A stretch of DNA of 64,000 nucleotides from a virus, in UHGV virus genome UHGV-2202118. One strand, given 5' to 3'. The notes beneath the pieces were generated by a model, which saw only the letters and a program-made list of their open reading frames with translations, did no database searches and was not told the DNA's origin. Both the position numbers and the translations under genes were made by a program. Shown here in pieces: positions 28,337 to 64,000 of this stretch. Each line of letters begins with the position of its first letter. The first letter of the stretch is position 1.

Positions 28337-29524
28337 TTAAGCTGTTCTCTGCCATACATACAGTACGAAGGATGGCTGCTCAATGTTAAAAGCTTGTCCA
28401 CCACCAATACTGTTAGTGTTCCCGCTATGCGTATGCTCAGAAGAAGAAACTGTTACAGTACCATTGTGTGTATGTGAACCAATACCAACCGTGTGGCTGT
28501 GAGCACCAATACCAACCGTGTGGCTGTGGTTACCAGTCGTGTTAGTGGTAACACTGAAAGAGTGAGTGTGTGAACCAGCGACTTCACAGACAGCATCTGC
28601 TGAGTACCATGATTGGTCATTCCTTGTAGACCAAACCATTGCAGGTCTTTCCGATAAACCACCACCTGCTTCATAGGTCAATCTATGGTTGTGAGCACCA
28701 GCCGCATTTGTTGACCCACTGCCCACATGGTTGTGGTTACCAGTCGTGTTAGTGGTCTTTGTTCCATAGTCAAAAGAGTTGGTAGTCTTAGTTCCATAAT
28801 CAAAAGCTGAAATTGACACCGTTGCATTATGGGTGTGACCACCACCACTAAGAGACACAGAGTGTGAGTGTTGTGGCATGTTATTAACTGACAAAGTGAC
28901 AGTTGAAGCACCAAATACAGAGCCTGTTGGTCTTGTATCAGAGTCATAACCAACCAATGCTCTACCTTTTGAAACTAACTCCCAAGTTCCTCCACAAATT
29001 AAATATGTAGAAGGGTTTGCAGAGTTCATGGAAAGATGGATAGTACCTACTGGATAGGAAGCCTGAACAGCCTTGTACAAGTTATTTACTGCTCTTGCTG
29101 TAGCATACTTATCTGCATCTTCGTTATAAAGGTTAGATGTTGTCCAGTTCTGAACATTACTCAATCCTACCTGTACCTTAGTTGTATTATGTGGGTTGCT
29201 CTTGTCCTGAATATGCTGTTGAACAAGATTATTAACCTCTTCTGAAGACATAATCTGTAGATTTGCTCTTGCCTGAGCTACATTAGTAACGTCTGATAAG
29301 TTATTTGCAGCAACTAACTGAAGAGCATTGATAACGTTATCTAAACCAATTTGTGTTTTAGTAACACCATGAGGGTTATTTCTTAGGCTTGAGTGTGGAG
29401 CAAGTAATTGCTCAAGAGTACATCTCTTATCCTCAATACCCTGCTTAAGATGGAAGATATCACTAAGGTCAATTGGTAAGGCTGCTTGAGGCAAGGCACT
29501 AATTTGAATTTCACCTACCGCCAT
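28337..29524 (-). CDS. tail fiber protein (paralog) with HxH repeats
   Basis: 395 aa; HSHSVS, GNHNHVGSG, GSHTHSFS, GAHSHTVGIGSHTHNG; C-terminus YVWQRTA similar to MAWVRTA of the 25903-28290 protein. Confidence 0.65.
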   Translation of the reverse strand: MAVGEIQISALPQAALPIDLSDIFHLKQGIEDKRCTLEQLLAPHSSLRNNPHGVTKTQIGLDNVINALQLVAANNLSDVTNVAQARANLQIMSSEEVNNLVQQHIQDKSNPHNTTKVQVGLSNVQNWTTSNLYNEDADKYATARAVNNLYKAVQASYPVGTIHLSMNSANPSTYLICGGTWELVSKGRALVGYDSDTRPTGSVFGASTVTLSVNNMPQHSHSVSLSGGGHTHNATVSISAFDYGTKTTNSFDYGTKTTNTTGNHNHVGSGSTNAAGAHNHRLTYEAGGGLSERPAMVWSTRNDQSWYSADAVCEVAGSHTHSFSVTTNTTGNHSHTVGIGAHSHTVGIGSHTHNGTVTVSSSEHTHSGNTNSIGGGQAFNIEQPSFVLYVWQRTA

Positions 29525-47198: not shown

Positions 47199-48815
47199 TC
47201 AACGTCTAAGCCCCTCATATGGGTTTCCCCTCACTAAGTCTGTGTGAGCGCCCATTGATGGTGGCTTGAATAATTTAACTTCGTTAAGACTGTTGAAAGC
47301 ATCACTGGTAGCATCCACTTGGTCATCTTTAGTTTTGCCATCACCACAAAAGCCTTCAAGCTCTTGAAAGTAAGCTTCATTCCAACTACCTCTCAAGACT
47401 TTTACAAGTCCAGCTTCAGAAGCAGCAGAAAATCCCGCAAAGCGGGTAACTTTATCTTTATTTGTTGGTTTGGCTCTTGCTCGATAACCTTTCTCGGCAA
47501 GTTTCCTGATGAGGGATGTTGCGTAGGATTTACCAGCAGCGCCTGGGTCTTGAGGGATAAAAATACCAGTTCGCTTACCGTCACTTTCAGCAGTCAAATT
47601 AATTTGTGTTTCGACTCCAGAGGGTCTATCTCTAAATCTTACTACATCAATGATATAATAGCAACCGTCTTTTTTAGATTTACCCATCTTAACACCTGCT
47701 GTCCAGTCTGGATTAGGGTTAATCTCAGATGGTAAAGTTGCTGCTAAGTCCCATGCTCTAACATCAAATACATCTTCTGGGAGTGAATCAACAATTTCAC
47801 ACCATTGTCTTTGCCAATAGTTTGAACCTTCTGCACGAGCCTTCCAGTTACCGAAACGAAGTCTTGCAACGTTTAAAGGAGTGTTGTTTTCCAGCTTACC
47901 ACGGTACTTAGGCTCTAAGAAGTCAAGGATTGGGTTATCATCAATCGTACCAGAAATAAAGGTGTATGTTTGAGGAATCTCAAGGGGGAACATTTCAAGA
48001 ATCTTGTCTCTCTCCCAATCAGAAACCATCACGCCATCGTTCATTACATACCAACGAATACGACCACATTTTTCAGGGTCTGGGTAGCCTTCTTCATCTA
48101 AGAATGGCTCTACCCAATCGTAAATAAAGTGGTCTCTGTCTGGGTTCATGGAAATCTTCATGTATGAATCGCCTTCAGCACCAGAACGTAGACGGGTTTG
48201 TAGGTATGAAATCTGTGAAGCAGAGAAGTGTGTACCTTCGTCAAAGTAAATAGCTGAGTATTCAATACCCTGATGACCTTCAGCGTGCTTTTCAAGTTCT
48301 AGGTAGGTAAACTTGATAGTTGCCCCAGAAGGGAATGTGATAGTCATTTTCTGCTCGTGAGGAATCCCACCAAACTTACCAAATAGTTTCTTTGCAGCAG
48401 GCCATAAACCACCTTGTAACTGTGTTGTATTTCGACGGAAATATACAGCATTATAGTTAGGGTCTTCAATAAATCTTAAAGAGTCCATTAACAATGCGGC
48501 AGTCTTACCAGCACCAGCAGCACCACCATAGAGAACCAAGTCAGCATTAGTATTTAAAAAGACCTCTTGAGAACCCGGCTGAGGGGCTACATAGTTCTTA
48601 TCAGTCATCAATTTAAAGATAAGGCGAACTTGGTCTGGTGTGTATCTTAATAAAGTCAGAATTTGAGTTGGAAGGAATTTAGAGGGGTCTTTACCGAATG
48701 ATTTAATAATTTCTTTTACTTCATCAGAAAGCCCCAACTCTCCAGCTAGGACTTTCCTAACATCTTCCACTCGCTTCTGCTTAACAGCATTTAAGTCCAT
48801 TAAGCGCCTCCGCAA
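47199..48815 (-). CDS. terminase large subunit
   Basis: 538 aa; Walker A LYGGAAGAGKTAAL; acidic nuclease-type C-terminal half. Confidence 0.85.
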   Translation of the reverse strand: MRRRLMDLNAVKQKRVEDVRKVLAGELGLSDEVKEIIKSFGKDPSKFLPTQILTLLRYTPDQVRLIFKLMTDKNYVAPQPGSQEVFLNTNADLVLYGGAAGAGKTAALLMDSLRFIEDPNYNAVYFRRNTTQLQGGLWPAAKKLFGKFGGIPHEQKMTITFPSGATIKFTYLELEKHAEGHQGIEYSAIYFDEGTHFSASQISYLQTRLRSGAEGDSYMKISMNPDRDHFIYDWVEPFLDEEGYPDPEKCGRIRWYVMNDGVMVSDWERDKILEMFPLEIPQTYTFISGTIDDNPILDFLEPKYRGKLENNTPLNVARLRFGNWKARAEGSNYWQRQWCEIVDSLPEDVFDVRAWDLAATLPSEINPNPDWTAGVKMGKSKKDGCYYIIDVVRFRDRPSGVETQINLTAESDGKRTGIFIPQDPGAAGKSYATSLIRKLAEKGYRARAKPTNKDKVTRFAGFSAASEAGLVKVLRGSWNEAYFQELEGFCGDGKTKDDQVDATSDAFNSLNEVKLFKPPSMGAHTDLVRGNPYEGLRR

Positions 48816-48821
48816 ATAGAA

Positions 48822-49022
48822 TTATTCAGAGTCTGTAGCAGTCTCTTCTTTCTTAACTTCGAACTTTGCATCAACAGCATCAAGAAGTGCATCCATAGAT
48901 GCTTCTTTAATATCAATACCTGTTGCTACAGATAATCTATCTGCAATTGCCATGATAGTGTTCTGCATAAATTCTAGCTTTTTATTAGCTTCATAAAGTT
49001 CTTTGTAAACGGTCTCACTCAT
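48822..49022 (-). CDS. small protein upstream of terminase (possible small terminase subunit)
   Basis: 66-aa ORF immediately upstream of the large terminase. Confidence 0.3.
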   Translation of the reverse strand: MSETVYKELYEANKKLEFMQNTIMAIADRLSVATGIDIKEASMDALLDAVDAKFEVKKEETATDSE

Positions 49023-61485: not shown

Positions 61486-61912
61486 CAACTCGACTAAAGA
61501 TGAGATGTACACAGAAATTTGTGATAAGTTAAACTGTTCAAGACATGCTGCTAAGGTTCTTGTACATTGTTTTATCTGGGAATGCTCAGAAGCTTATATG
61601 AAACACGTAGCTTTTGAGAGTTCTCATTTACTCGGTGATGCAAAAATAAGTGTAGCACTAAAAGAGCCTGAGATGAAAACAGTACCTAAAGTTGGTAATG
61701 TGTATAAACTAAAAAATTTTATTACAGGCGAGATTGTTGCAGAAGGTGAAGTGCAACAGGTTTATCATGATGGTAAATATCTGTTTAAGATATTCGAGTA
61801 TGATAGTCGTTACAGACACTTATGTGGTATTACATTTTTAGTTTCAGAGGATGACCTCATCAAGAACAATAGTAATAAATTCGCAGTACCAGAATATCAA
61901 GTTTTACGATAA
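61448..61912 (+). CDS. hypothetical protein
   Basis: 154-aa ORF. Confidence 0.4.
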   Translation: MKVKEIVQRVMLDNSTKDEMYTEICDKLNCSRHAAKVLVHCFIWECSEAYMKHVAFESSHLLGDAKISVALKEPEMKTVPKVGNVYKLKNFITGEIVAEGEVQQVYHDGKYLFKIFEYDSRYRHLCGITFLVSEDDLIKNNSNKFAVPEYQVLR

Positions 61913-62474
61913 TGGTGTGATAGATATGGAAAAAGATAACTTAAAAGAAGTTGAAGGTAACTACTTAGTACTTGACTGGAAGGATGTTCGGGAAGCACTC
62001 TCCGAAGAAAATCTTGACTGGTTCGAACAAATTATCTTTGCAGTACGGCATAACCGAGAAGTTGAAAATGGTAAAGAGCCACTTGAAGGAATCTTTGTAG
62101 AAAGGTCTTATCCATTCTATGAAGACACTTTGCAGAAAGTTAAGATGTACTTTAAACAGAAGAACCGTAAAGTGGTCACTATGGTATCTCTTGGTGGACA
62201 GAGTATGTCTGTGATGGAAGATATCAACCCTAAGAGACCGAGTAAAGGTGTTTGTATAAAAATCACAGGACATGAAGAGTATATCTCAGTGGCTGACTTT
62301 AGTGTGTTCTGTAATGGTTCTGCTGTCTTTAATGGGTTTCACTATGATATCCGAGTGTACCCAATCAAGGGAGATGATATCATGATGCAGATATTCGATA
62401 ACAATAATGGGTTCACTCATTTTTACCAGACAACTAAGTCATCATTGAAAACAGTTCTGGAAACACTGATTTAA
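61851..62474 (+). CDS. hypothetical protein
   Basis: 207-aa ORF, last gene before the non-coding repeat region; followed by hairpin + T-run at about 62485-62512. Confidence 0.4.
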   Translation: MTSSRTIVINSQYQNIKFYDNGVIDMEKDNLKEVEGNYLVLDWKDVREALSEENLDWFEQIIFAVRHNREVENGKEPLEGIFVERSYPFYEDTLQKVKMYFKQKNRKVVTMVSLGGQSMSVMEDINPKRPSKGVCIKITGHEEYISVADFSVFCNGSAVFNGFHYDIRVYPIKGDDIMMQIFDNNNGFTHFYQTTKSSLKTVLETLI

Positions 62475-63079
62475 AATATCTTAAGAGCCTCCTTAATTGG
62501 GGGCTTTTTAATTTTTATAAAATTTTATCGGTTGTCCCAACCTCTGGGTCACCATCATATGTGAATAAAATATCTATCCTTCTTAACAACCTTCTTAATC
62601 TTACTCTCTATATAGTTATATAGTACTATATAGTATCTTAGTAACTATCTAGTGGTCTCAATAGCCCTCTGTATAGCCCTTCTAAATAGCCATCTAAACA
62701 CTCTTCTAACAAGCCTTCTTAACAACCTATACAATCACCTTAACCATCCCTCTACACCCTCTTAGAAGCTCCTATACACCTCTTAATTTCTAGGTAAGCT
62801 ATGACACTCTCTATAGGTGTTCACTAGGTACTACTAAGCCTCTATATAAACTGTTTTAACAAACTTAACAGGAATATCTTCACAGACCTTATCTCACAAG
62901 GTCTAACACGGTACTAACAAGGTATCTTATAAGCCTGTTATTACCTGTATTTTTAAAAGACTGTATAGGTAATTATTCAGAATCTTAAAATTTTTATAAA
63001 ATAGGACTATCAAGTCATTTTTTAGGGTCTTTGAAGGAACTGAAAAATATCTGTAGAAGATGTATATCTGCTTGGTAGC

Positions 63080-63350
63080 CCTTAACAGCTCCCTTACAAG
63101 TACTTTGCAAAATTTTAAAATATCCTTAACAATCTCTTAACAGCTCTCACATCTTCTTAACAACTCTTCATAGGTCTTAACAGATTCTTAACAGAACTAA
63201 CAAGGGCTTAACAGTTTCTTAACAGTTGATACATGGGCTTTACAGAATCTTAACAGATGACTAACAAGAGCTAACAAGTTAATTTTTAAGAGTTATCTTG
63301 TTAAGATAATTAACAAGTTTCTAACAAGTGTTTAATCTTTTTAACAAGCT
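63080..63350. repeat. iteron array of (C)TTAACAG / CTAACAAG motifs
   Basis: At least 15 copies in about 270 bp, many spaced 10-11 bp apart; further copies at 62860-62930 and 63570-63700. Confidence 0.7.
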
Positions 63351-63590
63351 ATTAACATGGTCACTATCTCTTTCTTATCGTTCCCTCTCTTTCTTAATGA
63401 TTCTTTAAATAGCCCTTTTAAAAGCTCTCTATAGCTCCTTGTAAGCTCTTTTAAACCTCTTCCTAGTAATTACACCCCAACTATACAGACACCTATTTAT
63501 AAGGCTTTACAGGAGCTTTTAAGGCTATGTCAAAGACTCTTACAAAGCTTTTACATGGTATTAACAGAGATTTAACAAGGGACTAACAAG

Positions 63591-63740
63591 TTGCTAACAA
63601 GCATAACTATGTAGGGATTGTTAAGAATTTGTTAAGGGGACTAACAAGTTGCTAACAAGCATAACTATGTAGGGATTGTTAAGAATTTGTTAAGAAGATG
63701 TTAAGGGATTGTTAAGAATTTGTTAAGGGGACTAGCATTT
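63591..63740. repeat. 58-bp direct repeat, about 2.6 copies
   Basis: GACTAACAAGTTGCTAACAAGCATAACTATGTAGGGATTGTTAAGAATTTGTTAAGG repeated at 63591 and 63649 with a partial third copy. Confidence 0.75.
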
Positions 63741-64000
63741 ACGTAACTTTATAGCCTTTTTTACGTAACTTTATAGCCTTTTTTACGTAACTTTATAGCC
63801 TTTTTTACGTAACTTTGAAGTAACTTTATAGCCCCTATAACATGCTTTTTAGTGACTAGCATTTACGTAACTTTATAGCCTTTTTTACGTAACTTTATAG
63901 CCTTTTTTACGTAACTTTGAAGTAACTTTATAGCCTTTTTTACGTAACTTTGAAGTAACTTTATAGCCTTTTTTACGTAACTTTGAAGTAACTTTATAGC
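63741..64000. repeat. 22-bp tandem repeat array (ACGTAACTTTATAGCCTTTTTT) with higher-order periodicity, running to the window edge
   Basis: At least 9 copies plus variant ACGTAACTTTGAAGTAACTTTATAGCC; higher-order unit starting GACTAGCATTT repeats at 63741 and about 63866. Confidence 0.75.

Follow-up and report, generated by a model that had tools for sequence, protein, structure and literature searches.

The ends of the packaged genome have already been located in several phages of the genus Felixounavirus. Terminal repeats of 581 bp in Pr103Blw (annotated; PMC8303462) and of 613 bp in Ro111lw (PMC6454146) were determined by PhageTerm, and a 608-bp repeat was obtained for UAB_Phi87 from Bal31 digestion and run-off sequencing. 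The records of D4 and SeKF_63 carry the same repeat at both ends, and that of UAB_69 is annotated 'DTR' (direct terminal repeat); of the four records with the repeat at both ends, two are documented as PhageTerm-derived. The terminase of these phages is of a type that clusters with exact-repeat packagers, and a small terminase has not been identified for the group (PMC4837284). The Felixounavirus terminal repeat is already established, and a terminal repeat in such a phage is a real and largely ordinary finding. The literature on the genus reports terminal repeats, and in it we found no description of internal motifs, cut-site symmetry or a variable array; the fine anatomy of the terminus appears to be undescribed in searchable papers.

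In the T7 reference genome, which we re-examined, the terminal repeat is 160 bp long and has copies of CCTAAAG inside. About a dozen CCTAAAG copies at 13-bp spacing begin at position 175, 15 bp outside the repeat, and further copies lie ahead of the right repeat; these flanking arrays were reportedly named SRL and SRR by Dunn and Studier in 1983. The R sites of lambda cosB and the pacL and pacR boxes of SPP1 are terminase recognition sites made of phased repeats.

The DNA analysed here, a 64-kb stretch of a viral genome (the window), probably contains one edge of the concatemer-junction (genome-end) region of a Felixounavirus with T7-type packaging and a variable repeat array. Published isolates of this genus of Felix O1-like myoviruses share about 95% identity with the window; LMP34, VpaE1, fjerdesal and others reach about 95% identity over a 20-kb stretch of it. 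The region of interest is matched by 256 phage records, nearly all of them Felixounavirus and related Ounavirinae. One matching record, GU169904.1 (Staphylococcus phage SA1), is 91% identical to Felixounavirus terminal-region DNA at its positions 135900-136637, which suggests a mixed or chimeric deposit. The repeats sit within a gene-free gap of about 1.6 kb, with convergent gene blocks on either side. The last plus-strand gene (61851-62474) is closed by an intrinsic terminator at 62483-62508 (plus strand; a 10-pair stem, five of whose pairs are G-C, ahead of a T-run), which forms the left limit of the gene-free region. Between 62475 and 64000 the longest open reading frame (ORF) has at most 37 aa, and beyond the array, in relatives, the next genes lie on the opposite strand. 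Elsewhere in the window, tandem repeats of 27 bp and 30 bp (28466-28528 and 28748-28806) lie within a 395-aa ORF (28337-29524, minus strand), in a minus-strand ORF block that includes a 795-aa ORF.

By homology with the termini of relatives, positions 63074-63732 (659 bp) are predicted to form a short exact DTR present at both ends of the packaged DNA, because both of the relatives' junction sequences occur in the window. The two junction sequences are common to all four end-opened records; each is present once in the window, on the strand opposite to those records. The window carries one DTR copy, and its edge falls inside the adjoining array. The left junction, GATGTATATCTGCTT/GGTAGCCCTTAACA (63059-63087, plus strand; here and below the slash marks the predicted cut), places the cut between 63073 and 63074. 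It reads CTGCTT/GGTAGCCCTTAACA at 63068-63087 and is identical in Pr103Blw, Ro111lw, D4 and SeKF_63, and the 20-mer CTGCTTGGTAGCCCTTAACA within it is shared unchanged by 11 of the 12 phages examined, from Felixounavirus, Mooglevirus and Suspvirus, being missing only from the UNVERIFIED GE_vB_B3 record. That record (MG969406.1; locus L010), at 109 kb about 20 kb longer than the other genomes of the group and without the conserved left-junction sequence at the expected place, is probably mis-assembled. The right junction, GTTAAGGGGAC/TAGCATTTACGTAAC (63717-63750, minus strand; GTTAAGGGGAC/TAGCATTTACG at 63722-63743), places the cut between 63732 and 63733. Both window junctions are identical to, or one base off, those of Pr103Blw, Ro111lw, D4 and SeKF_63.

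On the other strand the right junction reads ATGCTA/GTCCCCTTAACA and repeats the left-junction motif in inverted orientation. The end-opened records, in their own orientation, start with GCCCCCTTAACA, and their repeat ends at GTTAAGGGCTACC/AAGCAGATA. Consensus sequences built from 24-28 distinct relatives read GaTGTATATCTGCTT/GGTAGCCCTTAACA for the left junction (24 distinct sequences) and AAAGTTACGTAAATGCTA/GCCCCCTTAACA for the right junction on the other strand. From these it follows that the two DTR edges have in common TGCTW/G, then 2-4 nt, then CCCTTAACA, in inverted orientation and facing each other; the similarity is short, and an offset of 2 nt is needed between the two sites. Additional halves of the right junction are also present: an inner half, GTTAAGGGGAC/TA, at 63631 (63631-63643), within the 58-bp duplication described below, and an outer half, GAC/TAGCATTTACG, at 63854 (63848-63866), at the start of the second block of the array. 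Either could be an alternative cut site, so that the real cut could differ from the predicted one or be heterogeneous. Relative to the junctions, the experimental sequence of UAB_Phi87 begins 8 nt further in at the first and extends 2 nt past the second; its run-off ends differ by up to 8 nt from the ends that PhageTerm gave in relatives. An earlier reading of this DNA made from its sequence alone (the sequence-only reading) had suggested a terminus, packaging or origin-associated structure; of these, the terminus is supported by the match of the DTR edges to the opened records of relatives and to the UAB_Phi87 run-off sequence. The position tells annotators where the genome should be opened, and with a DTR of 659 bp the packaged genome would be longer than a circularised assembly by that amount.

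The predicted DTR has the internal motif content of Felixounavirus DTRs as well as their junctions, in a genome of the same genus (about 95% identity), and it occupies the same position, between convergent blocks of small genes. Its 659 bp compare with 558-658 bp in the relatives; the greater length is due to a private 58-bp duplication and extra 11-bp units. To its left lies a conserved non-coding flank (62510-63073) with six forward YTAACAR motifs, situated just inside the left terminal repeat of the packaged genome. In 11 phages of three genera, conservation per 20 bp of this flank is mostly 0.83-1.0 (lowest 0.70), and over most of the DTR it is 0.73-0.97, falling to 0.09 at the 58-bp duplication; the end of the adjacent gene scores only 0.64-0.76, less than the non-coding region. 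About 450 bp left of the DTR, 62594-62653 is occupied by a series of short CTATATAG-type repeats and palindromes (CTCTATATAGTTATATAGTACTATATAGTATC and others), with no gene downstream; within it, the 11 phages (three genera) show no variation at 62614-62633, and conservation of the adjoining blocks is 0.91-0.95.

The flank and the DTR together (62510-63732) contain 34 YTAACAR motifs, as compared with 1.37 expected (about 25-fold; Poisson P about 4e-35), and no second cluster was found anywhere in the 64-kb window. Inside the DTR, 21 forward motifs (CTTAACAG or CTAACAAG; 63082-63652, plus strand) are mostly 11 bp from their neighbours, and at its right end 11-bp phased reverse motifs (TTGTTAAG) occupy 63618-63727 on the minus strand. 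Motif orientation is forward throughout most of the field and switches to reverse in the final 115 bp of the DTR. GTTAAG occurs six times in the last 110 bp of the DTR, as opposed to 2-4 times in the relatives compared; the IMG/VR genome L026 has five copies of the 11-bp GTTAAG unit. Intrinsic curvature was considered and rejected: AA/TT periodicity at 10.5-11 bp does not exceed background when the whole DTR is considered and is confined, trivially, to the tandem array, and our claim is limited to the local 11-bp spacing of the motifs.

Tandem arrays were called by Tandem Repeats Finder. Within the DTR, a 58-bp unit forms an exact tandem duplication at 63579-63694 (2.0 copies, 100% match, score 232). 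The sequence-only reading had it begin at 63591, 12 bp too far to the right, and had counted two full copies and one partial copy. The two full copies are exact; the 'third copy', however, is a composite at 63695-63737 that consists of an 11-bp insert, the last 22 nt of the 58-bp unit and then its first 10 nt with one mismatch. The duplication was not found in about 30 relatives, and other long DTRs, which lack it, owe their length to other places. By homology, the 58-bp repeat is a recent, lineage-specific duplication within the DTR.

The first base beyond the DTR, 63733, is also the first of the 22/33-bp array; by homology, this side would immediately precede the right-hand DTR copy in the virion genome. 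Tandem Repeats Finder called a period of 22 at 63738-63816 (3.6 copies, 100% match) and at 63862-63918 (2.6 copies), and a period of 33 at 63889-64000 (3.4 copies, 100% match, score 224). At least nine copies of one unit had been claimed from the sequence. There are indeed nine copies of GTAACTTTATAGC, the ninth ending at base 64000, but only five units are the exact 22-mer ACGTAACTTTATAGCCTTTTTT (at 63741, 63763, 63785, 63865 and 63887), the remainder being 33-bp variants (ACGTAACTTTGAA plus GTAACTTTATAGCCTTTTTT). The core GTAACTTT occurs 13 times in 258 bp, as compared with 12 times on both strands of the other 63.7 kb, and the palindrome TTACGTAA, present nine times in the array, is found at a single place elsewhere in the window (63.7 kb). 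Exact repeats of such length are far beyond chance. Since the array reaches the window edge at 64000, the core count is at least 13.

The array also has a higher-order repeat, previously estimated at about 125 bp; it is present, with a period of 124 bp, and TAGCATTTACGTAAC occurs at 63733 and again at 63857. Block 1 (63733-63856, plus strand) consists of TAGCATTT, three 22-bp units and a terminal 33-bp-type unit ending in CCCTATAACATGCTTTTTAGTGAC, a short non-repeat stretch that parts the two blocks. Block 2 (63857-64000, plus strand) opens with TAGCATTT, followed by two 22-bp and two 33-bp units and a third 33-bp unit truncated by the window edge. As a higher-order duplicate of 124 bp, it is bounded by copies of the 8-bp repeat GACTAGCA, at 63730 and 63854. 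Block 1 is homologous to the 51-bp, three-core element of most relatives. The block-2 junction was absent from relatives, IMG/VR and JGI metagenomes, where the best matches were 91-95% identical. A CRISPR array, which the sequence-only reading had dismissed, was also rejected here because the units stand head-to-tail, without unique spacers.

Comparison with relatives indicates that the array is, by homology, a copy-number-variable expansion of a conserved ACGTAACTTT element abutting the predicted cut site. Among about 32 relatives compared, the array usually has three cores and measures 51 bp, being made up of a single 22-bp unit and the terminal unit; Mooglevirus and Suspvirus have one or two cores. 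Expanded arrays were found in VSe102 (17 cores), FO1a (11), GE_vB_B3 (10) and two IMG/VR genomes, L026 (9) and L038 (6). With at least 13 cores compared with the usual three in Felixounavirus, the window array ranks with the largest observed. In Felix O1 and FO1a, two members of one species, the DTRs are identical at 569 of 569 positions, yet the arrays measure 55 bp (three cores) and 198 bp (11 cores), respectively. Comparing copy number between isolates, the check that had been proposed for the array, thus revealed differences among independently sequenced relatives. In view of these varied copy numbers, the array behaves as a variable-number tandem repeat, many copies of which are dispensable for viability. 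As a hypervariable marker it could tell apart near-identical Felix O1-type phages used in therapy or typing, although short reads will probably mis-size it.

The large terminase is encoded at 47199-48815 (phrog_979, E = 4.7e-233; Terminase_6N/6C), in a block that shares about 95% identity with Felixounavirus genomes, and by sequence it belongs to the Felix O1 type, which is associated with exact terminal repeats. When small ORFs near the terminase and the terminus were compared with PHROGs, Pfam, NCBIfam and PDB sequences, no small terminase or DNA-binding partner was recognised; the sole named domain among them was DUF5681, in ORF 53960-54331. Two conserved small proteins are encoded in the neighbourhood of the packaging genes, this 123-aa DUF5681 protein (minus strand) and a 66-aa phrog_4397 protein (48822-49022, minus strand) directly upstream of the terminase; as no small terminase has been recognised in the group, both are candidates for it. 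An HNH endonuclease is encoded by ORF 49569-50021 (minus strand, 150 aa), which is located two ORFs upstream of the large terminase. Close copies of it (at least 90% identity; for example ECML-1, 99.3%) occur in only 10 phage records, as compared with about 250 relatives sharing the terminal region. HNH-assisted terminase cutting of the HK97 type was rejected because the gene is sporadic among relatives, and the ORF behaves as a mobile homing endonuclease rather than a core packaging gene.

We propose that genomes in the concatemer are joined via a single DTR copy and that, during packaging from concatemers, the terminase and a recognition partner would assemble on the YTAACAR field. The terminase would then cut or nick at the two inverted TGCTW/G..CCCTTAACA sites, one per DTR edge; staggered cuts of opposite strands and subsequent strand-displacement synthesis would yield a second DTR copy, as proposed for T7. 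A strand-specific enzyme would need inverted sites, and the inverted motif seen at the DTR edges fits packaging with short exact repeats. In this scheme the right-hand site probably has the ACGTAACTTT element as its outer half, and slippage or unequal crossing-over among ACGTAACTTT copies and across GACTAGCA (63730 and 63854) may have produced the expansions. Expansion of the array would be tolerated, not required, because most relatives manage with one to three ACGTAACTTT copies. The mechanism by which genome ends are recognised and duplicated in this group is not worked out in the searchable literature, and the inverted cut-site motif and the motif field offer mutable targets for studying both steps in exact-repeat myoviruses.

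The same features raise the question of whether the repeats are instead iterons of a replication origin at the genome end, where a phage or host initiator would bind YTAACAR and/or ACGTAACTTT and open AT-rich DNA. The short motifs are dense, phased and oriented, the G+C content is 0.29-0.33 compared with about 0.39 for the window, and the region is gene-free, strongly conserved and apparently untranscribed. We nevertheless consider an origin unlikely: the motif field coincides exactly with the DTR and its junctions, most relatives have just one to three ACGTAACTTT copies, no initiator-like gene was recognised adjoining the region, and no DnaA box within one mismatch was found in it except one weak site. 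Far less probable still is a role of the arrays in the transcription of the convergent gene blocks on either side, as promoters, terminators or a small RNA. Promoter-like hexamer pairs are in excess (12 compared with 6.7 expected), but this excess is explained by the resemblance of TTAACA to TTGACA, and the matches, all of just 9/12, arise from the repeat motif. The gap has no downstream gene in either direction, the plus-strand block ends at its own terminator before the region, and the record of Michonne annotates terminators on both sides of the gap. An RNA element was rejected, as no credible Rfam match was obtained, and so was a hairpin or cruciform role, since single-strand folding of the DNA was no better than that of shuffled sequence (z-scores of -0.9 and +1.0).

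A different concern is that the copy number, and possibly the 124-bp and 58-bp duplications, were produced during assembly. Arrays longer than a read are often mis-sized, the doubled coverage over terminal repeats confuses assemblers, and the exact junction sequences occur in no other record or metagenome searched. Against this, the element is conserved across genera, and comparable expansions are present in several independently sequenced relatives; as these carry the same array with differing copy numbers, the array as such is not an artefact. The two 124-bp blocks, moreover, differ in unit composition (three 22-bp units plus the terminal unit in one, two 22-bp and at least two 33-bp units in the other), and are therefore not a simple k-mer overlap. 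An assembly error in the copy number or the duplications is, in our judgement, quite improbable. We give equally little credence to a more elaborate form of the packaging model, in which the conserved 1.2-kb motif field and the array would act as one cis-acting unit for both packaging recognition and the start of replication, with the half-junctions at 63631 and 63854 as alternative cuts. If this were true, virions with DTRs of different lengths would be expected, and the array copy number would tune the efficiency of cutting or the choice of ends.

Under the preferred reading, as a genome-end region with T7-type packaging, the locus can be compared with recognition sites of the lambda and SPP1 type. 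In both cases a defined cut site is adjoined by a short motif repeated several times at intervals of about one helical turn. The ends in the window, however, are predicted to be exact repeats as opposed to the cohesive or headful ends of lambda and SPP1, and, in contrast to those recognition systems, the phage group of the window has no identified small terminase (PMC4837284); its motifs would be putative binding sites.

The closest analogue in organisation is the set of short-repeat arrays beside the T7 terminal repeat. Both phages would have a short exact terminal repeat and non-permuted ends, and in both a short motif is found within the repeat as well as in arrays that begin a few bases beyond its edge, towards the unique sequence; the array begins at the first base outside the DTR in the window (63733) and 15 bp outside the repeat in T7. 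The likeness is one of organisation only, as CCTAAAG of T7 is unrelated to ACGTAACTTT and YTAACAR. The window phage also belongs to a different family, being a myovirus with a T4-type large terminase, and its DTR is four times longer than the T7 repeat. Unlike T7, it has two motif families, inverted at one DTR end, and an array whose copy number is hypervariable among close relatives.
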